Source of the DNA: Patescibacteria group bacterium
GTDB lineage: Bacteria; Patescibacteriota; Gracilibacteria; UBA4473
Reading direction: 5' to 3'
DNA: 64,000 bases
Assembly (NCBI GenBank): GCA_965660445.1
Contig: CBFIAK010000001.1
Span: 42,121-106,120 of the forward strand
Part shown: positions 13,425 through 24,467 of the stretch, piece after piece
Numbering within the stretch: position 1 is the stretch's first letter
How the letters are laid out: every line of letters starts with the position of its first letter
Position numbers and translations under genes: made by a program
The notes under the pieces: model-generated
Database searches by the model: none
Told to the model about the DNA's origin: nothing
The model's input: only the letters and a program-made list of their open reading frames with translations

Positions 13425-14086
13425 ATCACAGATTTTCAATTCTTCGTTCGGTATTAGAACTCATCACGCTGATTGCTTTTTTTTATTTAGTGGTTCATTT
13501 AAATGGGCATGCCATACTGCTCTTGCTTGATCATGGACACGCAGATCATCACCACATAACCGAGACCGTATCTATTGTGTCTCATTGGGAAGAATGGGCA
13601 TGGGGCATTGGAATAAGTCTTCTTTTTATTGGTATATGGCAAAAAACACCATTACGACACCTTATACCGTGTCAGCATGAACATTGTCACACAGAAAAAC
13701 CACTCTCCCATTTACTCGCCATTGGAGCTTTGTGTTTGCATTTTTTCCCGGAAGCAGGAATTCGATATTCATTACTCGAAACATTCTCGTTTCAATGGGA
13801 ATCAGTATTAGTACTCGTAGGGTTTATATCACACATACTGGTTGATATTCTCATTACATTTCATTTAGCGTCTTATTGGAACACACTTCCAAAACGCATA
13901 CTCTGTGTTCTCTTTATTGGAAGCATTTGGGGAGTCGCATTCTTTGCGCATAACTGGATAGACGTTATTTTTTCTCATACAACAGAGGGGTTGTTTCTTT
14001 TAATAAGCGGGTTTATACTGTCGATGTTTCTTCATCTTCCTCATAAACCAAAATCATGTGTGGTTTGTGAATCGCAACCATCATAA
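13421..14086 (+). CDS. His-rich polytopic membrane protein, function unknown
   Basis: 221 aa with several TM helices plus DHGHADHHH and CQHEHCH clusters. The start overlaps the upstream stop (ATGA). Confidence 0.5.
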   Translation: MNHRFSILRSVLELITLIAFFYLVVHLNGHAILLLLDHGHADHHHITETVSIVSHWEEWAWGIGISLLFIGIWQKTPLRHLIPCQHEHCHTEKPLSHLLAIGALCLHFFPEAGIRYSLLETFSFQWESVLVLVGFISHILVDILITFHLASYWNTLPKRILCVLFIGSIWGVAFFAHNWIDVIFSHTTEGLFLLISGFILSMFLHLPHKPKSCVVCESQPS

Positions 14087-15849
14087 TGGAACAAAAAACC
14101 GCTTTACGCATACTCAAAACCGGAGAAAACGTTTTTTTAACAGGTGCAGCAGGAACAGGAAAAACGTATGTATTGCATCAATTTATAAAATGGCTCTACA
14201 CACATCGCATATCAGTGGCTATTACGGCTTCCACTGGAATTGCCAGTTCTCATATTGCTGGGCAAACGATTCATAGTTGGAGTGGTATTGGTATTCGAGA
14301 AACACTCACTCGCAAAGACTGTGATACGATTGCTCGTAAAAAAGTGGTACGTGAACGAATTGAGTCGACTCATGTTTTGATCATTGATGAGATGTCGATG
14401 ATTTCTCGCCAAACACTTGAGGCTCTTGATGAACTGTTTCGGTTTATACGGTTATCAAACGCACCGTTTGGTGGTATGCAAGTGGTGGTATGTGGAGACT
14501 TTTTTCAGCTTCCACCAGTAAGCAAAACCCCTATACCCAACACACAAAAATTTGCGTTTATGTCTCCTTTATGGGGGCAAGCAAGGTTTCAGGTGTGTTA
14601 CTTAAAAGACCAGTTTCGACAAAACGAAGACGATCTCGCTGGGTTTTTGGACGAAATTCGGTCAGGAGAAGTATCAGATAGTCGTATCAATCAGCTCCAA
14701 GAGTGTATTGAACGCACGCAAGAAGAAACTCCGGAACAAACCTATACGAAACTCTATACACATAACATTGATGTGGATACATTAAACGAAAAAGAACTAA
14801 ACGCGCTGCCCTCTCCGGGATATGAGTTTGTAGGCATGGGATCAGGTGACAAATCGGGCATAGAAATACTAATGAAATCAGTATTAGTACCGCACCGTAT
14901 GGTATTAAAAAAAGGAGCTCCTGTTATGTTTATTAAAAATAATCCAAAAGTGGGATACCACAATGGAACACTTGGCACCATTACTGATTTTACATCAGAA
15001 GGGTTTCCCGTGGTCACGACACGAGACGATCGAGATATTTATGTAACACAGGAAGAATGGAGTATTCGTGATCGGTACGGAACACCTCAATCAACGTATA
15101 GCCATATTCCATTACGCCTCGCATGGGCTATTACCGTACATAAAAGCCAAGGGATGACACTTGATGAAGCAGAAATGGATTTATCAAAGACGTTTGAAAC
15201 AGGGCAAGGATATGTCGCGTTATCGAGAGTACGCAATTGGAGAGGATTAAGACTTCTCGGATGTAATAGCACAGCATTACAGATTGATCCACTTGTATTA
15301 CAAGCCGATAAACGGTTTCAAGAACTCTCACAAGACGGAGAACAAAACATACTCAATACCGATTCATCATTGATTGAAAAACGTATTGAAGACAGACGTT
15401 TATCACAAGAAAATTCTATGAAAGAAGAAGAAATGCCTTTGTTTCTCTCTGAAAAAAAGAAAGTAAAAATAAAGAAGAGTGTAGTCAAACCAGAACCTCA
15501 AAAAAAAGTATCAACCTATAGTGTGACCAAATCGTTATTACTCGAGAAAAAGCCAATTGAGTCTATTATGGAAGCACGAGGAATGAATTATGATACGATT
15601 ATCAAACACATTGAACATTTAGTCATAGAAACACCTGATTTAGATATCGATTATTTACGTCCTGAAAAAAAAGACATGGCAAAAATGACGATGGGGTTCA
15701 TACAAGCAGAACAGAAAGCAACCGCTGAAGACCGTGATAAAGACGGACATGTAAAACTCAAACTTGTTTTTGAGACTCTTAATGAGTCTTATTTCTATAA
15801 CGATTTAAAAATCGCACGACTTTTTTTATTAGACCGCACAAAAAACTAA
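14086..15849 (+). CDS. Pif1/RecD-like SF1B DNA helicase with C-terminal helix-turn-helix-like extension
   Basis: 587 aa with Walker A GAAGTGKT, Walker B LIIDEMSM, GDFFQLPPV, TVHKSQG and YVALSRV. The start overlaps the upstream stop (TAATG). Confidence 0.8.
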   Translation: MEQKTALRILKTGENVFLTGAAGTGKTYVLHQFIKWLYTHRISVAITASTGIASSHIAGQTIHSWSGIGIRETLTRKDCDTIARKKVVRERIESTHVLIIDEMSMISRQTLEALDELFRFIRLSNAPFGGMQVVVCGDFFQLPPVSKTPIPNTQKFAFMSPLWGQARFQVCYLKDQFRQNEDDLAGFLDEIRSGEVSDSRINQLQECIERTQEETPEQTYTKLYTHNIDVDTLNEKELNALPSPGYEFVGMGSGDKSGIEILMKSVLVPHRMVLKKGAPVMFIKNNPKVGYHNGTLGTITDFTSEGFPVVTTRDDRDIYVTQEEWSIRDRYGTPQSTYSHIPLRLAWAITVHKSQGMTLDEAEMDLSKTFETGQGYVALSRVRNWRGLRLLGCNSTALQIDPLVLQADKRFQELSQDGEQNILNTDSSLIEKRIEDRRLSQENSMKEEEMPLFLSEKKKVKIKKSVVKPEPQKKVSTYSVTKSLLLEKKPIESIMEARGMNYDTIIKHIEHLVIETPDLDIDYLRPEKKDMAKMTMGFIQAEQKATAEDRDKDGHVKLKLVFETLNESYFYNDLKIARLFLLDRTKN

Positions 15850-17208: not shown

Positions 17209-17298
17209 CAAACACCAACCGTGTCCCGATATATCGAGAAACAGTATCCCTCCTTTTCATTGCCTCGTTTCACTCGTTATTCAAAGCACATTCAACTG

Positions 17299-17387
17299 TG
17301 GCGGGCAGAATATGTCTCCTACCCTTTATAGCTATTATTTAATATTTCAATGAGACAAACAAGACACTATAAAAAAGGGTGTCTCAA
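17299..17387. repeat. attL-like site: TGGCGG core plus P'-type arm
   Basis: TGGCGGGCAG..GTCTC.. then CAATGAGACAAACAAGACACTATAAAAAAGGGTGTCTCAA, which includes the hairpin GAGACAC-N11-GTGTCTC. It is nearly identical to 20425-20467. Confidence 0.55.
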
Positions 17388-17389
17388 AA

Positions 17390-20092
17390 TTAAAGATTAT
17401 TTTTTGCCTTAATTAGCGCGATATCTTTATTATTATTTCTTGTTTTCAAAGAATCTAGGATCTTTTGACCTGCCTCTGGAGTCCAATATATTTTTAGGTT
17501 TTCTCTAGCTCGTGTAATAGCTGTATAAAAAATATTATGAGTAATCAACTCTTCTGTTTCGGCCGTGATTACAATCTTAACCGAATTATATTCCAACCCT
17601 TGTGCTTTATGGATTGAAACTGCATAAGCTACCTGAAAAGGAATTATTGTGTCCAAAGAGTCATCATCTTCATCAGTACTTTTATACTTGTTAACAACAA
17701 AACGAATCACAGAGGTGTCATCAGATTCACTATCAAGAAGTTCAAGATCATACCTAGACGCTTCAAATCCATTGATAACTTTTCCAATTTCAATATCAAA
17801 TTGTATTTGATCTTCAGAGCTATTTATATCGATGATTCTACCTTTTAAGTTATTATAAATTAAAGGCGAAAATCGTTCTGCCTCGTTAAACAAAATAGGA
17901 TCATTGACCTTATAGGTTTGGATTCCCCATCTCACTGTTTTGTTTTTGTTATTATTTTGTAAAAACCTATTAATATTATTTATTCCATAAAGCCCATCAT
18001 AATTTAAACAAAGAATAATTTCATCGTTTTGTGTATAATCAAAAATTGACTCATCAAGCCTTGCTGAATATTGGTTTCTTGTTATATGCTCAACAATATC
18101 ATCATCAATATTTCGAACTTTATCCCAAAGATCAAGTAAGTTTTTATTTGTTGTTCGGTAAGGCTTCGTTAGTTCAAAAACTGAATGATCTCGTATAAAT
18201 GGTCTAATTACACTAAACCAATTTCCGAATAGAATTGATTCAATTTGGAATATGTCACCAACTAAAACTATAGATAAAAAAGAAACTTTCTCTAATATTT
18301 TTTGCATATCAGTATTACTAACAGTACTGCATTCATCAATAAAGAGTAGATCGAACTCACTATCTTGATTACTTCGAGACAAGAACTTGGATATAGTTTG
18401 AAATTTGCAATTAGAGGCTTGAACTTTTCTTCTCAAATTATCTACAGCAGGGTTTGTGTTTGCTAGATAAAGTTTTCGTTCATCATTAAAAAAATGTGAT
18501 ATGTGATTTATCAGAGTTGATTTGCCAGTTCCTGCCGCACCATAAATTAGAGCTACTTTGGAGCTTTCAAACATTTGTTCAATAAACGATTTTTTTTGAT
18601 CGCAATCAATATCGTAATCAGAAAAATTCAACCAAGCACTAACCGATTTCGAATAGTCTTTAAAGCCTGTTAATGAAAGATCCTTTAATTCATTAATAAT
18701 ATATAATACATCTTTTTCATACCCCCTCATATAAATATGATTCTTATAGCTATCAAGTTTTCGATTTCCGTGAGTAAAATAAAGTGAATTATTATAAGTT
18801 TGAATAAGATCATCAACATTCTCAAAATGATCTAACTCTTCTTGTGGAGTGTATAAATATCCATTAACTTCTGTGTTATTTTTCACAAATCTTGCGAGTA
18901 TTTCGTGCTCTCTACCAGTTGAATCAATGCAATCAAACAAATCTGAAATTTTAGGATTATGGTTTTTTAGAGACGTATTAAATGGCATTTCATCAAAAGG
19001 AATACAACCATATTCAAGTTTTAAATCTGATAACTTTATACAAGATGTTCCTGTATACTGCTTTTTTATAATCTGGTTATTTAACCGATAGAGCAAATAA
19101 GCAATAATATTATGACCTGCTTTTTTATTTTTAATTAAACCTCGACATTCGTCTAAAATACTCAAAAAATGTATAGTTTTAACTCTTGTTTTTAATGCAT
19201 CCTGAAAATCTTTATAATTATCATCAGGAAGATTCATAATTTCAGGAACACTAAGACCAGACCTCTTAAGAAGAGACATTAGTTCTCGTGATTCTGGAGA
19301 GTTTCCTCTCATTTTAAGTTCACTTCCAAATATTTTGGCAAAATTATTGAGCTCACATGGCCTAATTGAGATCTCCCAATCATCAATAATTTGAATCGGC
19401 ATCTGTTTATTCAAAACACTTATATAATCATTACTAATTGAAAGTTTAACGGCATAATTTTTGGAAACATCAAATCGTGTAAATGCAATAATTCTATCAA
19501 ATTTACTTATGTTATTACTTGCTCGAGTAAAAGTTACCTCATAATAAACTTCATATTGAACAAAAAAGGGTTTTATCTTTTGAATATAGTATCTGTCACC
19601 TGTGGATGATTTAGATCTTCTTGATGCTGGCTGTTTAATTTTGTCAACGATCTTTTCATAATACTCACTAAGTGCTGGATCTGTATTTATGGGGAAATCA
19701 CGAATATTACTAAGAACATCAAGTCCATACTGTCTTTTGAGAAAAGATCTTATTTTCAATAGGTATTCATAGTACTTCAAAATTAATCTTTCAGAGTTTT
19801 CTTCATCAAGGGTGTAATGAGAAGCTGAGATTTTTAACAAGCTATGAAATTTTTTTAAGAACTTCAACTTTCCCATTCGGCCTACAAAAGCATTAGCTTC
19901 CTCAATATTTTCGTAATTAATTTTTATATCATCCCCATTACTGAAAATCTTCAATGAGATATGTTCAACAAAATTCCTAAGCTGGGAAAGCATATTTTGA
20001 GAGAGAATACCCCTTTCTGTAACGTCAAATTTATCAATATTAGCACAAAGAAGTTTATCGATATCTAAGATGGCTTTATCTATTTTTTGCAT
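17390..20092 (-). CDS. 900-aa SF1B (RecD/Pif1/Dda-like) helicase with about 510-aa uncharacterised N-terminal region carrying a HEPN-like Rx4H motif
   Basis: C-terminal half has Walker A GAAGTGKST, Walker B LLFIDECS, VGDIFQ, SIHKAQGLEY and YTAITRAREN. The N-terminus has LRNFVEH (R39-H44). The gene looks more AT-rich than its neighbours by eye. Confidence 0.8.
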   Translation of the reverse strand: MQKIDKAILDIDKLLCANIDKFDVTERGILSQNMLSQLRNFVEHISLKIFSNGDDIKINYENIEEANAFVGRMGKLKFLKKFHSLLKISASHYTLDEENSERLILKYYEYLLKIRSFLKRQYGLDVLSNIRDFPINTDPALSEYYEKIVDKIKQPASRRSKSSTGDRYYIQKIKPFFVQYEVYYEVTFTRASNNISKFDRIIAFTRFDVSKNYAVKLSISNDYISVLNKQMPIQIIDDWEISIRPCELNNFAKIFGSELKMRGNSPESRELMSLLKRSGLSVPEIMNLPDDNYKDFQDALKTRVKTIHFLSILDECRGLIKNKKAGHNIIAYLLYRLNNQIIKKQYTGTSCIKLSDLKLEYGCIPFDEMPFNTSLKNHNPKISDLFDCIDSTGREHEILARFVKNNTEVNGYLYTPQEELDHFENVDDLIQTYNNSLYFTHGNRKLDSYKNHIYMRGYEKDVLYIINELKDLSLTGFKDYSKSVSAWLNFSDYDIDCDQKKSFIEQMFESSKVALIYGAAGTGKSTLINHISHFFNDERKLYLANTNPAVDNLRRKVQASNCKFQTISKFLSRSNQDSEFDLLFIDECSTVSNTDMQKILEKVSFLSIVLVGDIFQIESILFGNWFSVIRPFIRDHSVFELTKPYRTTNKNLLDLWDKVRNIDDDIVEHITRNQYSARLDESIFDYTQNDEIILCLNYDGLYGINNINRFLQNNNKNKTVRWGIQTYKVNDPILFNEAERFSPLIYNNLKGRIIDINSSEDQIQFDIEIGKVINGFEASRYDLELLDSESDDTSVIRFVVNKYKSTDEDDDSLDTIIPFQVAYAVSIHKAQGLEYNSVKIVITAETEELITHNIFYTAITRARENLKIYWTPEAGQKILDSLKTRNNNKDIALIKAKNNL

Positions 20093-20210
20093 TCAAAAAT
20101 AATTGAAGAAAATAATACTCTTATACTACTTTTTTGAAAAATATTGAATAGGATTCTTTATCCAAAAAAGGCAAAAGGGTCAATAAACTGTAACATTATA
20201 GTCTTTAATT

Positions 20211-20467
20211 CCACTGCCCTTACTGATCTCTCCACCATAGTGACCAACCTTCCAACCCTTTCGACGACTCTAAGGGTTTAAACAGGTCTTAACAAGCAAA
20301 AATCATAATGTACCACTCCCTAGGAAGTAGATCACTATGACGTATTAGTGAATTGTATGGCGGGCAGGAACGGTCTCATGTCTTATCTGTCATTATCATT
20401 AGCCTTTTTTGTATATCTTTTTATCAAAATGAGACAAATGAGACACTATAAAAAAGGGGTGTCTCAA
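20211..20467. repeat. attP-like junction between the two elements (P-type arm + TGGCGG core + P'-type arm)
   Basis: 20211-20357 aligns co-linearly with 24134-24282 through the blocks ACTGCCCTTA, CGACGACT.T.AAGG.TTTA and ATTAGTG..TTGT.TGGCGG. 20364-20467 aligns with 17305-17387. Confidence 0.55.
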
Positions 20468-20578
20468 TTTTCATAATGTTACAAATGTTACACCGTAGAA
20501 GGGGCATTAAATAAGGAAAAAAATCCTAGACTTCAAAATCCATTGCGTCATCAATTGAATACAAATTTTATTCAACAA

Positions 20579-21817
20579 ATGAATAAGTTAGTACCAGAAG
20601 TGAAATACTGCATCTATGCGAGGAAGTCGAGTGAATCGGATGAGAAACAAGCCCTATCGATTGGATCACAGATAACCGAAATGCAACGGCTGGCAGAAAA
20701 AGAAGGACTCAAGGTCGTTGAGAGCATCCAAGAGAGCAAATCTGCCAAAGACTCGGGGCAAAGAGCAGGATTTACACAGCTTCTCGCAGGGCTTGAGGAA
20801 GAGCGGTTCAATGCCATTCTCACATGGGCACCAGATCGGCTGAGTAGAAATGCGGGAGACCTTGGGAAACTGGTAGATCTAATGGATCAGAAGGTGCTTG
20901 TGAAGATTCAGACAAGCGGACAGGCATTCACAAACACTCCTGATGAAAAATTCCTGCTCATGATCCTGTGTTCTCAAGCCAAGTTAGAAAACGATAACAG
21001 GTCAAAGAATGTGAAACGAGGACAACGAACACGGTGCGAAATGGGAACTAGTCCTGGACCCGTGCCACTTGGATATAAACTCATCCGAGGACAAAAATAC
21101 GGAGAAGCGAGTAAGATTTTAATCGATACGGAACAAGCCCCATTCGTTAAAAAAGCATTCGAATATATCGCTTATGAGAACTTAAGTGGACGACAGGTAA
21201 AAGAATATCTGGAAGATGAAGGATTCCGTAATAAACAAGGGAAAGTCATTGGATATAGTCGAATTTTCAAAATCATTAAAGAACCGTTTTACTACGGTGA
21301 GTTTGATTATGGAGGAATCCGATACAAAGGAACTCATAAACCGATAATCACAAAAGAACTCTTTGATGCTGTTCAAGACAAACTGCAAAAATATGCGGTT
21401 CGAGAAAAATGGGGACGAAAAGATTTTTACTTCAATCGGATTCTGAAATGTGCTGAGTGTGGATCAGGTGTCAGTGGAACAGAACACACAAACAGACATG
21501 GAACCAAATACATCTACTACAAATGCAACAAATATGGCGGAACAAAAAAATGTAGTTGCAAATACATTCGAGAAGAAAAACTTTTTGAAGAAGTGGCAAA
21601 AATCATTGTCGACGTAAAAGAAGAACATCTTCGAATGAATCGACGAATCAAAGAAGACTTAATAATGATAAATCGGCATCACAGAGAAAAACCAATAACA
21701 ATCCAAGAGCATTTAATCTCCATACTCAAGGATGGAACGAAAAAAGAGAAATCTGATATTTTGAGGAGTTTTAAAGAGAAATTATTATTGAAAGATGGGA
21801 AAATAGTATTGTTTTAA
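20579..21817 (+). CDS. Large serine recombinase (resolvase/invertase catalytic domain + recombinase domain + zinc ribbon)
   Basis: N-terminal YARKSS catalytic-serine context, a central recombinase domain, and a Cys cluster CAECGSG..YYKCNKYGGTKKCSC. The track start at 20543 is TTG; ATG 20579 is preferred. Confidence 0.85.
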   Translation: MNKLVPEVKYCIYARKSSESDEKQALSIGSQITEMQRLAEKEGLKVVESIQESKSAKDSGQRAGFTQLLAGLEEERFNAILTWAPDRLSRNAGDLGKLVDLMDQKVLVKIQTSGQAFTNTPDEKFLLMILCSQAKLENDNRSKNVKRGQRTRCEMGTSPGPVPLGYKLIRGQKYGEASKILIDTEQAPFVKKAFEYIAYENLSGRQVKEYLEDEGFRNKQGKVIGYSRIFKIIKEPFYYGEFDYGGIRYKGTHKPIITKELFDAVQDKLQKYAVREKWGRKDFYFNRILKCAECGSGVSGTEHTNRHGTKYIYYKCNKYGGTKKCSCKYIREEKLFEEVAKIIVDVKEEHLRMNRRIKEDLIMINRHHREKPITIQEHLISILKDGTKKEKSDILRSFKEKLLLKDGKIVLF

Positions 21818-21900
21818 CGTCAGGAATATACGAAGTTTTGCGACTGAAAGGAGTAAAATTTGGGTGAAGCCTGCAAGGATTTTCTCTTTAAGCCTTGTTA
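21815..21900. repeat. Cassette-associated repeat R2 (attC-like, degenerate)
   Basis: Shares the blocks TAAC.TCAGGA, AAGTT, TTTGGG, CCTGCAAGGA, TTTCT and CCTTGTTA with R1 at 22531-22606. It lies immediately 3' of the 2H phosphoesterase gene in the minus direction. Confidence 0.5.
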
Positions 21901-21971
21901 TGTGGTTTTTCTGCAAGAAAAACTGCTGGAGAAAATCTTTGATTTTCGTAAGCACAGTATGACGGAGGACA

Positions 21972-22469
21972 CTATCTACTAGAATAAAAATCCTGTATTT
22001 CTTTCCAACTTCCATCAATCTTTTTTGCTAAAGAGTATCTTGAGATTCTATCTTTTCGACTAATTAATTCTTTTGAAGTTCTATCAAATTGTGAAGATGA
22101 TTTTGAAATTGTTAAATGTGGATTATAATTATCTTCAAAATATTGTTTTGCGATTACATCAAATTCTGAATCAGCATAATTTCTTACAACAGAAACAATT
22201 CCTTTATGCAATTGCAAAAGCTCATCAGAACGAGATAATTTTAACACTAAAGAATCTTTATCAAAATCATCGAAACCTAAAGTTTCAAATTCAAAAGGAT
22301 TAAAACTAATTTGAGAAAAATCAGTAACCAATTTATTTTCATGTTTAGGTTTCATATAGAAAAAACAAAGTGTAGAATGTAAACCAGAACTTGGTAGAAC
22401 TAAATTATTTTGTCTCGAAATTAAATTGGACAATTCTTCGTTTGGTCGAAAATAAGCAAGATACTTCAT
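21972..22469 (-). CDS. 2H phosphoesterase superfamily protein (LigT/cyclic phosphodiesterase-like)
   Basis: 165 aa with two HxT/S motifs in the expected hydrophobic context (GLHSTLCFF and NPHLTISK). Confidence 0.7.
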   Translation of the reverse strand: MKYLAYFRPNEELSNLISRQNNLVLPSSGLHSTLCFFYMKPKHENKLVTDFSQISFNPFEFETLGFDDFDKDSLVLKLSRSDELLQLHKGIVSVVRNYADSEFDVIAKQYFEDNYNPHLTISKSSSQFDRTSKELISRKDRISRYSLAKKIDGSWKEIQDFYSSR

Positions 22470-22530
22470 AAATTAAGGAAAGAAATACAGTAATATAAAT
22501 ATTTGGATAGTGTTCGAGTAATATTGCACA

Positions 22531-22606
22531 TAACATCAGGATTTAACAAAGTTCGCGGAGCGAATTTGGGAAATTCCTGCAAGGAATTTCTGTTAAATCC
22601 TTGTTA
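22531..22606. repeat. Cassette-associated repeat R1 (attC-like)
   Basis: Perfect 10-bp inverted repeat GGATTTAACA (22539-22548) / TGTTAAATCC (22591-22600), enclosing hairpins TTCGC-GGA-GCGAA and GAAATTCCT-GCA-AGGAATTTC. It lies 3' of the isochorismatase-family gene in the minus direction. Confidence 0.55.
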
Positions 22607-22670
22607 AATGAGGGTGAGCGAAGCGAAAGGCTGCAAGCCGTCCCCGACTGACTGCAAGGAAGGAGAGTTT

Positions 22671-23189
22671 CTACAAACAAACGTCATCAGTCAAGAGAAT
22701 TTGCTTTTTACCAAGAATATGTTTTAAACTATCAATTGCCGAATCATGATTATTTTTCCCATGTAAAGAATTACAAGCATCTTCAATTACAAAAGTTTCA
22801 ATATTATTATCAAATAAATCCATCGCAGTTTTGATAATACAAACATCCGTGTAAATCCCAGTAAGATAAATTTTTGTAATTTTATTAGTTTTAATGAATT
22901 CTTTTAATTCATTATTTAATACAGTATAAGTATTATGCTGAATGTTTATATTGTCTGATGTTTGTAATTCGGAAAATAGTTTTTGATCTTCTTTATTTTG
23001 AAATTTAGTCCAACTTAATTGTTTTTCAAATAAAGATTTTCCATCATTAACAAATGTTGGAAAAACTATTTTTCCATTAAATGATTCTTTCAATTTTAAA
23101 AGATTCGGCAATATATTCTCAGATTCTTGGTATCTAAAACCTTCTTGCATATCAATTATTAAAAGCAAATTCTCCATAATATAAAACAT
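22671..23189 (-). CDS. Isochorismatase/nicotinamidase-family cysteine hydrolase
   Basis: 172 aa with LLIIDMQEGF (catalytic Asp context) and LTGIYTDVCII (catalytic Cys context). An alternative ATG lies at 23177. Confidence 0.7.
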   Translation of the reverse strand: MFYIMENLLLIIDMQEGFRYQESENILPNLLKLKESFNGKIVFPTFVNDGKSLFEKQLSWTKFQNKEDQKLFSELQTSDNINIQHNTYTVLNNELKEFIKTNKITKIYLTGIYTDVCIIKTAMDLFDNNIETFVIEDACNSLHGKNNHDSAIDSLKHILGKKQILLTDDVCL

Positions 23190-23311
23190 AAATTACTTTG
23201 TATATAAAAGTTTGTTTGTAGAAATTTCATTTAACTCGTTTTTATCCAACCTTTGTATTTCAAATATAGCAATTTCTTGTATGTTATGCAAACTTTTATT
23301 ATTCTTTGGAT

Positions 23312-24124
23312 ATGGAAAATATTTTGGACAAAACCGAACGAGTTTGGAAATTGAGAAACTACTCCCCAAAAACTCGCAAAGCATATCTGTTCTACATAAG
23401 AGAGTATATCAGTTTTTCTAAAGGAAAAGGAATTAAAGATAAACAAAAAGCGATTGAAGATTTTTTGCTTGATAAATACAATCGTAAACAATCTCCGCAA
23501 ACAGTTAATCTGGCACTCAATGCGGTAAAATTTCTGTACGCGGAAGTTTTGAAAGATCCACAAAAGATTGACTTGAAGTTTGCGAAGAGAGACAAGAAAT
23601 TACCCATTGTTTTGTCTCATGCAGAAATTAAAGAAATTATCCAGGCGACTGAAAATGCAAAATACAAACTCATGATTTCGCTTGGCTATGCTTGCGGTCT
23701 GCGTGTGAGTGAAGTTATAAATCTACGTGTTGCAGATTTGGATATTGATGAACTCGTCGTACATATCAAAGGAGCAAAGGGGAAAAAAGACAGAATCAGT
23801 GTTTTGCCAGAAAAATTACAAAATGATTTGCGAAATATCATTGCAGGCAAAAGTAATAATGATTTTATCTTTGCCTCTAATCGAGGAGGAAAACTCACAA
23901 CAACGTCTTTACAAAAAATGTTCCGCAAAAGTTTAGCCAATACGAACATAAGAAAACCCGCTACCTTTCACTCATTGCGTCATTCATTCGCCACGCATTT
24001 ACTCGAAAATGGAACCGATGTGAGATATGTGCAAGAACTGCTTGGGCATTCCAACATCCGCACCACACAAGTGTATACGCAAGTAACAAATCCAAAGTTA
24101 AAGAACATAAAAAGCCCTTTATAA
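23312..24124 (+). CDS. Tyrosine recombinase, XerC/D-IntI-like
   Basis: 270 aa with an N-terminal SAM-like YSPKTRKAYLFYIREYISF, then GLRVSE, HSLRHSFATHLL and LLGHSNIRTTQVYT. It lacks the roughly 35-aa insertion typical of integron integrases. The track start at 23306 is TTG. Confidence 0.85.
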   Translation: MENILDKTERVWKLRNYSPKTRKAYLFYIREYISFSKGKGIKDKQKAIEDFLLDKYNRKQSPQTVNLALNAVKFLYAEVLKDPQKIDLKFAKRDKKLPIVLSHAEIKEIIQATENAKYKLMISLGYACGLRVSEVINLRVADLDIDELVVHIKGAKGKKDRISVLPEKLQNDLRNIIAGKSNNDFIFASNRGGKLTTTSLQKMFRKSLANTNIRKPATFHSLRHSFATHLLENGTDVRYVQELLGHSNIRTTQVYTQVTNPKLKNIKSPL

Positions 24125-24133
24125 ATATTTTTA

Positions 24134-24288
24134 AAACTGCCCTTATCGCACATACCTCATAGGAAGCAAAAACTCCTACCCATGCGACGACTTTGAAGGC
24201 TTTATCAACGCTAAATACCCCAAATGTCCCAATGCCCCATCCACCATAGTGGAAAGGAACCAGGTGCCATTAGTGCGTTGTCTGGCGG
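24134..24288. repeat. attR-like site: P-type arm plus TGGCGG core (= CCGCCA 3' end of tRNA-Ser)
   Basis: Co-linear similarity to 20211-20363. The core is the last 6 nt of the tRNA gene. Confidence 0.55.
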
Positions 24289-24373
24289 AGAGAGAGGGAT
24301 TCGAACCCTCGGTTCCGGAAAACGGAACACACGCTTTCCAAGCGTGCGCATTCGACCACTCTGCCATCTCTCC
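24283..24373 (-). tRNA. tRNA-Ser (anticodon GGA), class II with long variable arm, CCA encoded
   Basis: Reverse complement GGAGAGA-TG-GCA..TGC-G-CACGC-TTGGAAA-GCGTG-T-GTTCCG-TTTTC-CGGAAC-C-GAGGG-TTCGAAT-CCCTC-TCTCTCC-G-CCA folds as a cloverleaf, 91 nt. Confidence 0.92.
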
Positions 24374-24467
24374 TTTTCATCGCATTGGCGGTATCCTATC
24401 ACAAACGTTCCTTCATTCAAGCAAAAAAAGTTGAAAAAAATCCGAAAAACTCCCACAATCAAAACAC

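Follow-up and report, generated by a model that had tools for sequence, protein, structure and literature searches.

The DNA described here, referred to throughout as the window, is a stretch of 64,000 nucleotides (nt) from a Patescibacteria group bacterium of the Gracilibacteria lineage UBA4473 (assembly GCA_965660445.1, contig CBFIAK010000001.1, positions 42,121 to 106,120 of the forward strand). It contains a gene at 17390..20092 on the minus strand that encodes a helicase of 900 amino acids (aa), as had been stated in a first-pass annotation made from the letters of the window. The gene lies in a variable island beside a tRNA-Ser(GGA) gene. Judged by its sequence, the protein is a new member of PDC-S53, an already catalogued single-gene defence candidate, and a role in defence against phages or other mobile elements is its probable function. 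The protein has a fixed four-part architecture, in which a six-helix domain is followed by a probable OB fold, then a mixed linker, and finally a superfamily 1B (SF1B) motor. The gene and its parts are as follows, with residues numbered from the N-terminus.

17390..20092, minus strand: helicase gene, an open reading frame (ORF) of 900 aa and a full-length member of the PADLOC family PDC-S53
19628..20092, minus strand: N-terminal six-helix domain, aa 1-155, possibly a HEPN-like fold (AlphaFold, predicted local distance difference test (pLDDT) 87)
19961..19978, minus strand: R39-N-F-V-E-H44 (LSQLRNFVEHISL), the proposed Rx4H motif (sequence)
19772..19822, minus strand: S91-H92-Y93-T94 ... R102-x4-Y107 block, an alternative candidate active or interaction site (conservation)
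19358..19600, minus strand: five-stranded beta unit, aa ~165-245, probably an OB fold (AlphaFold and Foldseek)
18608..19357, minus strand: mixed alpha/beta linker, aa 246-495 (AlphaFold; without a Pfam, PDB, or Foldseek match)
17468..18601, minus strand: SF1B (RecD/Pif1/Dda-type) helicase core, aa 498-875 (Pfam AAA_30, Viral_helicase1, AAA_19, and UvrD_C_2)
18515-18541, minus strand: Walker A motif GAAGTGKST, inside the helicase core

The membership in PDC-S53 is given by PDLC05035, the hidden Markov model of this family in PADLOC-DB, which aligns aa 1-899 with profile positions 1-895 of 900 (E=0, 1335.8 bits). The runner-up PADLOC family, PDC-S68, reaches 90 bits in the helicase part only. 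The matches to PDC-S68, the RecD of type IV-D systems (typeIV_RecD), GajB, and MkoA are all far weaker and lie mainly in the helicase half, and the similarity to the last three is confined to the generic helicase core (PADLOC E 1e-20 to 1e-5, against E=0 for PDC-S53). The phage protein family phrog_325 of PHROGs also covers almost the entire protein (aa 2-873, E=4e-81). No structural difference separates the protein from PDC-S53, since the end-to-end profile, the length of ~900 aa, and the single-gene organization are the same, and PDC-S53 likewise has no named domains in its N-terminal half. The PDC collection comprises 145 untested single-gene or multi-gene 'phage defence candidates', which were nominated because their relatives are embedded in Hma, BREX, DISARM, or type I restriction-modification (R-M) systems (Payne et al., bioRxiv 10.1101/2024.01.29.577857). 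A relative of the present protein inside a type I R-M operon reproduces the context that was used to nominate these candidates.

The family is large and widespread. At E<=1e-5 the protein has 3,507 relatives, and the best 120 of these share 61-83% identity over the full length and are ~900 aa each. The named taxa among these best 120 are Moranbacteria, Kaiserbacteria, Peregrinibacteria, Virgibacillus, Clostridium, Gracilibacillus, and Massilibacteroides. Further carriers found by a genome scan are Saccharibacteria, Gracilibacteria, Cyclobacteriaceae, and Alpha- and Gammaproteobacteria, and the family thus spans Patescibacteria, Bacillota, Bacteroidota, and Proteobacteria. When aa 1-500 are used as the query in an exhaustive search, 942 representative clusters at 50% identity are obtained. 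Among the 150 of these clusters that were listed, all but the short proteins and fragments are ~840-1,000 aa long, and for this reason the N-terminal half appears to be always joined to a PDC-S53-type helicase. Residue conservation was examined in 120 close homologs and in a divergent set of 95 sequences, 94 of which are divergent representatives with 29-57% identity. An alternative genetic code with TGA as a sense codon, as in Gracilibacteria, was also considered for the window and rejected, because the number of ORFs of at least 300 aa barely changes (27 vs 33).

The helicase half contains Pfam AAA_30 at aa 501-665 (6e-20) and UvrD_C_2 at aa 822-866 (2e-11), and its best PDB sequence matches include RecD2 (3e1s), RecD (1w36_D), and Pif1. 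Helicase motifs I (Walker A), II, III, V, and VI are all present as GAAGTGKST, DECS, VGDxxQ, SIHKAQGLE, and YTAITRA. Their key residues, G518/G521/G523/K524, D586/E587, G612/D613/Q616, H828/K829/Q831/G832/E834, and Y856/T857/T860/R861, are at least 93% conserved in the divergent set. The earlier description of a full RecD/Pif1/Dda motif set therefore holds, with every quoted motif found in the translation and supported by Pfam and conservation. The motif set of the motor is intact, and motor activity is predicted from it. The protein shares these five motifs together with AAA_30 and UvrD_C_2 with RecD2, RecD, Pif1, and Dda. However, it scores far below the equivalog cut-offs of RecD2 and RecD: TIGR01448 (NCBIfam RecD2) matches aa 391-887 at 1.7e-36 with 126 bits, under a cut-off of 500 bits, and the NCBIfam RecD model gives 91 bits against a cut-off of 310 bits. 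In contrast to RecD2, RecD, Pif1, and Dda, it carries a family-specific N-terminal extension of 500 aa, and it is found in neither a RecBCD nor a housekeeping context. A Pif1-family SF1B helicase of the host with a C-terminal HTH_40 domain is encoded by a separate gene at 14086-15849, 1.5 kb upstream. This gene, identical in contig L028 of a second sample, is part of the host core and is not related to the helicase of the island.

The N-terminal half was modelled with AlphaFold as aa 1-500 (pLDDT 84, predicted TM-score (pTM) 0.79) and as aa 1-160 (pLDDT 87, pTM 0.81). In the shorter model, six helices occupy aa 3-21, 27-50, 60-72, 74-91, 97-122, and 139-153. The N-terminus had been described as all-helical, and this is true of aa 1-155, but a beta unit follows with strands at aa 167-178, 181-190, 201-205, 214-226, and 229-242. 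Local Foldseek comparison of this beta unit with the PDB retrieves LEF-3, Rim1, and RPA70N with probabilities of 0.82-0.95, and bacterial and mitochondrial single-stranded DNA-binding proteins at lower values. In BFVD, OB-fold matches reach a probability of 0.99 with root-mean-square deviations of mostly 3.6-5 Å over 80-110 columns. The OB-type matches are many, independent, and local, but their whole-query E-values are 0.04-1. In the 95-sequence alignment the conserved residues of the unit include the aromatics Y169 and Y213 in addition to E185, K197, and E247. These models and matches make an OB fold, with predicted binding of single-stranded DNA (ssDNA), the probable identity of aa ~165-245. 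The linker that follows has conserved G326, N328, Y332, Q345, F366, P370, H378, and N434 in the same alignment.

It had also been claimed that the N-terminal ~510 aa match nothing recognizable apart from a HEPN-like motif. This is correct for Pfam and PDB sequences, in which aa 1-~495 have no relevant match even at E<=10, but PDC-S53 and PHROG 325 span the whole protein. Pfam searches at E<=10 with the N-terminal 500 aa and three sub-pieces return nothing relevant, and a Pfam scan of 46 diverse N-domains shows no recurrent family. Querying PDB sequences with either the single sequence or a profile of 46 sequences gives only noise, namely bacterioferritin and a designed protein. Foldseek with the 500-aa model against the PDB and BFVD, and with the 160-aa model against the PDB, gives no match at E<=0.001.

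The six-helix domain had been proposed to be a HEPN ribonuclease (RNase) with R39-x4-H44 as its signature, so that the protein would be a canonical HEPN enzyme with R39 and H44 as the catalytic pair, coupled to the helicase as its sensor. The motif is placed correctly, with LSQLRNFVEHISL and its R39 and H44 encoded at nt 19961-19978. R39 is invariant in the 120 close homologs, is kept in 94/95 of the divergent set, and precedes a polar residue, which is N40 in 52/95 and otherwise T, D, or H. HEPN domains fused to superfamily 1 helicases in R-M contexts are also documented (PMC3710099). However, H44 is kept in only 91/120 close homologs (76%), with Y, L, D, Q, or S as replacements, and in 31/95 of the divergent set, where A (20), Y (11), G (7), S (5), and also Q or L take its place. 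Conservation of the proposed pair thus extends to the arginine and not to the histidine. The motif is also frequent by chance, since shuffles of the N-terminal 500 aa contain Rx4H in 39%, Rx4-6H in 77%, and R[NDH]x3H in 8% of cases, and two further Rx4-6H matches occur in the protein at R303 and R630. The HEPN core is a pair of alpha-hairpins in which an insert often separates core helices 2 and 3, and its Rx4-6H motif is located at the end of core helix 3 or the start of the next loop (PMC3710099). The position of R39-x4-H44 does not fit this arrangement, because it lies in the middle of helix 2 (aa 27-50), with only one helix preceding it.

Searches at the level of profiles and structures lead to a similar picture. 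At E<=10 Pfam shows no HEPN family in the protein, in any of its pieces, or in 46 diverse relatives, and the 46-sequence family profile retrieves no HEPN chain from PDB sequences. HEPN-superfamily structures nevertheless make up 10 of the top 50 weak Foldseek matches, with TM-scores of 0.24-0.54 and all at E>0.8. These ten are the HepT toxins 7ae6, 8xeh, and 8xdj, AF0298 (2hsb), AbiV (9bj6), and five kanamycin-nucleotidyltransferase (KNTase) entries. The AlphaFold and Foldseek comparison that had been suggested as a check on the HEPN assignment is therefore without a significant match, but with a recurrence of HEPN structures among the weak ones. The pair R39-x4-H44 is, as far as the alignments tell, not what the family conserves, and a canonical HEPN enzyme built on it is very improbable.

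The residues that the family does conserve lie elsewhere in the domain. In the divergent set S91 is kept in 88/95, H92 in 93/95, R102 in 79/95, and Y107 in 93/95 sequences, and in the AlphaFold model H92 is in the loop ahead of helix 97-122, with R102 near the start of that helix. E43 is found in 84/95 sequences and replaced by Asp in 7 more. HEPN domains have a conserved acidic residue in helix 2, typically as Ex3[KR] (PMC3710099), and E43-x4-K48 in model helix 2 resembles it (E/D in 91/95, K/R at position 48 in 55/95), which is relevant only if helix 2 corresponds to HEPN core helix 2. In the AbiV and AF0298 families the motif histidine is typically missing, the arginine is kept, and a strongly conserved upstream histidine substitutes (PMC3710099). 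The Lactococcus lactis AbiV motif is 91-RNHKSKH-97, and neither residue is strictly conserved across the AbiV family (bioRxiv 10.1101/2024.05.05.592566). The present protein resembles AbiV and AF0298 in having a near-invariant histidine (H92) upstream of a conserved arginine (R102), and both structures are among its weak Foldseek matches. It further resembles the HEPN superfamily in its helical-bundle domain fused to a superfamily 1 helicase in R-M neighbourhoods, in a conserved arginine followed by a polar residue, and possibly in the acidic residue of helix 2. On the other hand, it differs in the lack of a sequence or profile match, in the wrong helix and variable H44 of R39-x4-H44, and in R102, which is near the start of its helix and not at the helix end like the HEPN motif arginine. 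Since HEPN structures account for 10 of the top 50 weak matches, an atypical HEPN-like fold with a site at H92 and R102 may still be considered.

The gene lies in an island with the following boundaries and contents.

17282..24283, no strand: variable island of ~7 kb, from a VIT1-family gene to the 3' end of tRNA-Ser(GGA) (contigs of a second sample)
17284..17389, no strand: left copy of a bipartite element, in the 3' flank of the helicase module at its junction with host DNA
20358..20467, no strand: right copy of the same element, native to the 5' flank of the serine recombinase gene
20543..21817, plus strand: large serine recombinase, CcrB/XisF-like and divergent to the helicase gene (Pfam Resolvase, Recombinase, and Zn_ribbon_recom)
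21972-22469, minus strand: 2H phosphoesterase of the 2'-5' RNA ligase / cyclic phosphodiesterase superfamily (Pfam)
22671-23189, minus strand: isochorismatase/nicotinamidase-family hydrolase (Pfam)
23306-24124, plus strand: tyrosine integrase adjoining the tRNA gene (Pfam)

The boundaries are taken as ~17282-24283 because contigs of sample ERR15116713 stop and restart there. One contig with identical host genes (ClpB ... Pif1, UPF0029, VIT1) ends at window position ~17281, and another starts exactly at the tRNA-Ser(GGA) 3' end, at 24285. The island thus contains the helicase gene, the serine and tyrosine recombinases, the 2H phosphoesterase, and the isochorismatase-family hydrolase. GC content is ~0.29-0.33 across the helicase gene, compared with ~0.38-0.41 in the host genes to the left. 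The left boundary of the island shows no duplication of the tRNA 3' end. A similarity of 18 nt (16/18) between 17246-17263 at the left boundary and 24366-24383 at the 5' end and upstream region of tRNA-Ser may be due to chance or may be a remnant. The Rfam search detects only tRNAs, and a sub-threshold match to 'Plastid-psbl-rps4' (24286-24329, plus strand, 49.6 bits against a gathering score of 68), on the strand opposite to tRNA-Ser, is most likely an artefact of the tRNA sequence. A promoter and terminator scan shows no enrichment over shuffles.

The helicase gene is flanked by a direct repeat of ~40 nt (37/40 identical) and a second block of 20 nt, at 17299-17387 and 20358-20467. The bipartite element consists of a hairpin GAGACAC-N11-GTGTCTY (GTGTCTT in the left copy) with TTTGTCTCATT, a spacer, and then GAGAC-N6-CTGCCCGCCA. 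Window 17284-20151 shares 81% nt identity with another Gracilibacteria locus (L001/L019), including the 3' flank and spacer, and the helicase of that locus is 83% identical in protein sequence. The left copy is conserved there with its spacer at L001 12700-12821. At a different locus (L035), a recombinase of the same 90% protein-identity cluster occurs with the bipartite site among host-type genes and without the helicase, and the similarity to the window begins exactly at 20358 and ends at 21798, with 83% nt identity. The left copy thus belongs to the helicase module and the right one to the recombinase gene, as its flank, and on this basis the helicase gene is regarded as a discrete ~3.1-kb module bracketed by recombinase-linked sites. 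The module may have been gained or lost by recombination at the bipartite site. The repeats were also considered as integron attC sites or structured RNAs, and this was rejected, as single-strand folding gives a short hairpin only (z -0.4 to -1.5).

The first-pass annotation had called the element recombinase-less. This description is misleading, because the repeat that flanks the helicase gene natively lies 5' of the adjacent serine recombinase gene, which begins 76 nt past the right repeat, and a tyrosine integrase is present beside the tRNA. The serine recombinase gene of the window shares 73% nt identity with that of the Gracilibacteria helicase locus and has weaker matches in Saccharibacteria helicase loci (L021, L015). 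A recurrent link between the helicase family and large serine recombinases is seen in the window, L001, L015, and L021, all from Patescibacteria, and in two more ORFs of a bulk scan. A copy on a Sporosarcina plasmid (L034) is near a small recombinase-family gene and a tyrosine recombinase. A second, unrelated direct repeat of 44 nt (82% identical, 21857-21900 and 22563-22606) brackets the 2H-phosphoesterase gene, and its second copy folds somewhat better than shuffles (z=-2.1). This bracketed gene directly follows the serine recombinase, which therefore has a single-gene module with flanking repeats of its own on either side.

The link with recombinases agrees with a different explanation, in which the protein assists its own mobile element as an accessory helicase for replication, recombination, or mobilisation, as Dda or a RecD-like enzyme does, and has no immune function. 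The family is always on or near mobile DNA, it travels with a large serine recombinase in the four Patescibacteria loci named above, and a probable OB fold with an SF1B motor would suit DNA-replication work. In contrast, the near-identical recombinase of L035 does without the helicase, and only 5/72,556 plasmids carry the family. Two temperate phages, phi1605 and TPDSL_ph1, carry homologs with ~41% identity over aa 1-500, but each encodes its own replication helicase, primase, or polymerase, and the homolog is located in an accessory block oriented against the early and replication genes. These blocks adjoin a type IIS R-M system with recombinases, or DNA methyltransferases. Relaxase, type IV secretion system, and Rep families are not among the 25 most frequent neighbour families in a bulk scan of 121 neighbours at 15 further loci, in which the top families are ResIII, serine recombinases (4 ORFs), SWI2/SNF2, type I R-M subunits, and PycC.

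The chromosomal contexts of homologs likewise speak against a helicase that serves its element, since homologs are embedded in type I R-M operons. A Peregrinibacteria homolog (L008) is positioned between HsdS and HsdR, the Anaeromicropila locus (L016) has the order HsdR-HsdM-HsdS-homolog with a gap of 20 nt, and a third homolog (L015) adjoins HsdM-HsdS-HsdR. The Gracilibacillus homolog (L005) has Lamassu on one side and McrBC on the other, with a type IIG enzyme close by, and another (L006) is found between CBASS/ParB-methyltransferase and YhcG/XhoI/Eco57I/ThsB-TIR genes. The Clostridium beijerinckii homolog (L004) is the terminal cargo of an integrase/Rep/DnaC-like element. The neighbourhood survey that had been suggested thus places homologs in defence islands, R-M operons, and prophage accessory blocks, and not in conjugation modules. 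A partner gene conserved across homolog loci was looked for and rejected, because the upstream and downstream genes vary by locus, in agreement with the single-gene nature of PDC-S53. The only shared neighbour is a hypothetical gene of 278 aa, 83% identical between the two phages (L030, L031, 8146-8982) and 18 nt upstream of the helicase homolog. A gene of ~70 aa also follows the homolog in these phages. The 278-aa gene is absent from the other loci examined and may be a lineage-specific partner.

A further explanation is counter-defence or competition between elements, for example by an anti-restriction helicase or by interference with rival elements. The cargo or moron position on prophages and islands, the frequent R-M neighbours, and the presence of a 2H phosphoesterase and an isochorismatase/nicotinamidase-type hydrolase in the same island are in line with it. 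Both of these enzyme classes have connections with immunity and counter-immunity based on cyclic nucleotides or NAD, and they occur among phage anti-defence genes. However, homologs are on the same strand as, and contiguous with, chromosomal type I R-M operons and lie inside multi-system defence islands, and this is the pattern of a defence gene. Moreover, the PDC source describes the curation as excluding likely known defence systems, mobilome-associated proteins, and non-defence proteins. Counter-defence is accordingly thought improbable.

Several observations weigh against a role in defence. A second paper terms the PDC systems 'unvalidated', no publication that mentions or discusses PDC-S53 by name was found, and phage annotators label phrog_325 a 'Dda-like helicase', which also agrees with a helicase that serves its element. 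At L003 and L009 the homolog is solitary among housekeeping genes without defence neighbours, a setting that also speaks against an element-serving helicase. On a 10.7-kb Lactobacillus plantarum plasmid the gene is directly downstream of repB-DUF536, which would fit a replication-helper role and is the sole observation in favour of that role. No nuclease-like or other effector domain is recognized anywhere in the 900-aa protein, Foldseek of the isolated N-domain against the PDB gives only non-significant matches (best E=0.82), and the steps by which the protein would act are ones that we only infer.

With these points included, defence against phages or other mobile elements is still favoured as the probable role, and an element-serving helicase is judged to be clearly the less likely of the two. 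The general idea of a one-protein mobile defence candidate in the first-pass annotation is upheld by the PDC-S53 membership and by the R-M, defence-island, and prophage contexts, and its R39/H44 HEPN mechanism is not. Helicase-centred immune systems include Nhi, Hna, GajB of Gabija, HamB of Hachiman, and the RecD-like helicase of type IV-D CRISPR-Cas. The present protein is like Nhi, Hna, Gabija, Hachiman, and type IV-D in having a superfamily 1 or 2 motor at its core and a defence-island location. Those systems have a recognizable nuclease domain or partner, or a CRISPR complex, whereas here neither a nuclease domain nor a conserved partner gene is detected.

In a defence role, the OB unit and the SF1B motor would engage ssDNA or replication and recombination intermediates of a replicating phage or plasmid. 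ATP-driven translocation in the 5'-3' direction could then derail the replication of the invader directly, as a nuclease-free helicase effector. Alternatively, translocation might switch on the N-terminal helical domain, in which the near-invariant polar residues R39, E43, H92, R102, and Y107 may mark a functional site. This site could be an atypical HEPN-like RNase site that gives abortive infection, and an RNase-type effector is a minority possibility within the defence role. A more detailed and rather doubtful proposal is that the N-domain is a divergent HEPN-type RNase with a site formed by H92 and R102 together with E43 and R39, as compared with AbiV and AF0298, and is gated in cis by the OB-fold ssDNA sensor and the SF1B motor. 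In that case PDC-S53 would act as an abortive-infection enzyme in a single chain, triggered by its helicase, and would have spread as a cassette captured at a serine-recombinase site.

A defence role will not surprise a specialist, and the mechanistic hook of the first-pass annotation is largely refuted. PDC-S53 is nevertheless a large family (>3,500 proteins, 942 clusters at 50% identity) that occurs in many phyla, yet half of the protein has had no assigned domain. A domain map is now supplied, in which a helical domain is followed by a probable OB fold, then by a linker, and finally by an SF1B motor. The near-invariant residues R39, E43, H92, R102, Y107, and K524 are offered as targets for mutation, and R39-x4-H44 would be the wrong mutant pair to rely on. 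If the protein protects without a nuclease, it would join the small group of helicase-only immune effectors. The existence of a discrete module tied to a large serine recombinase in small-genome bacteria of the Patescibacteria type bears on how reduced genomes acquire immunity.

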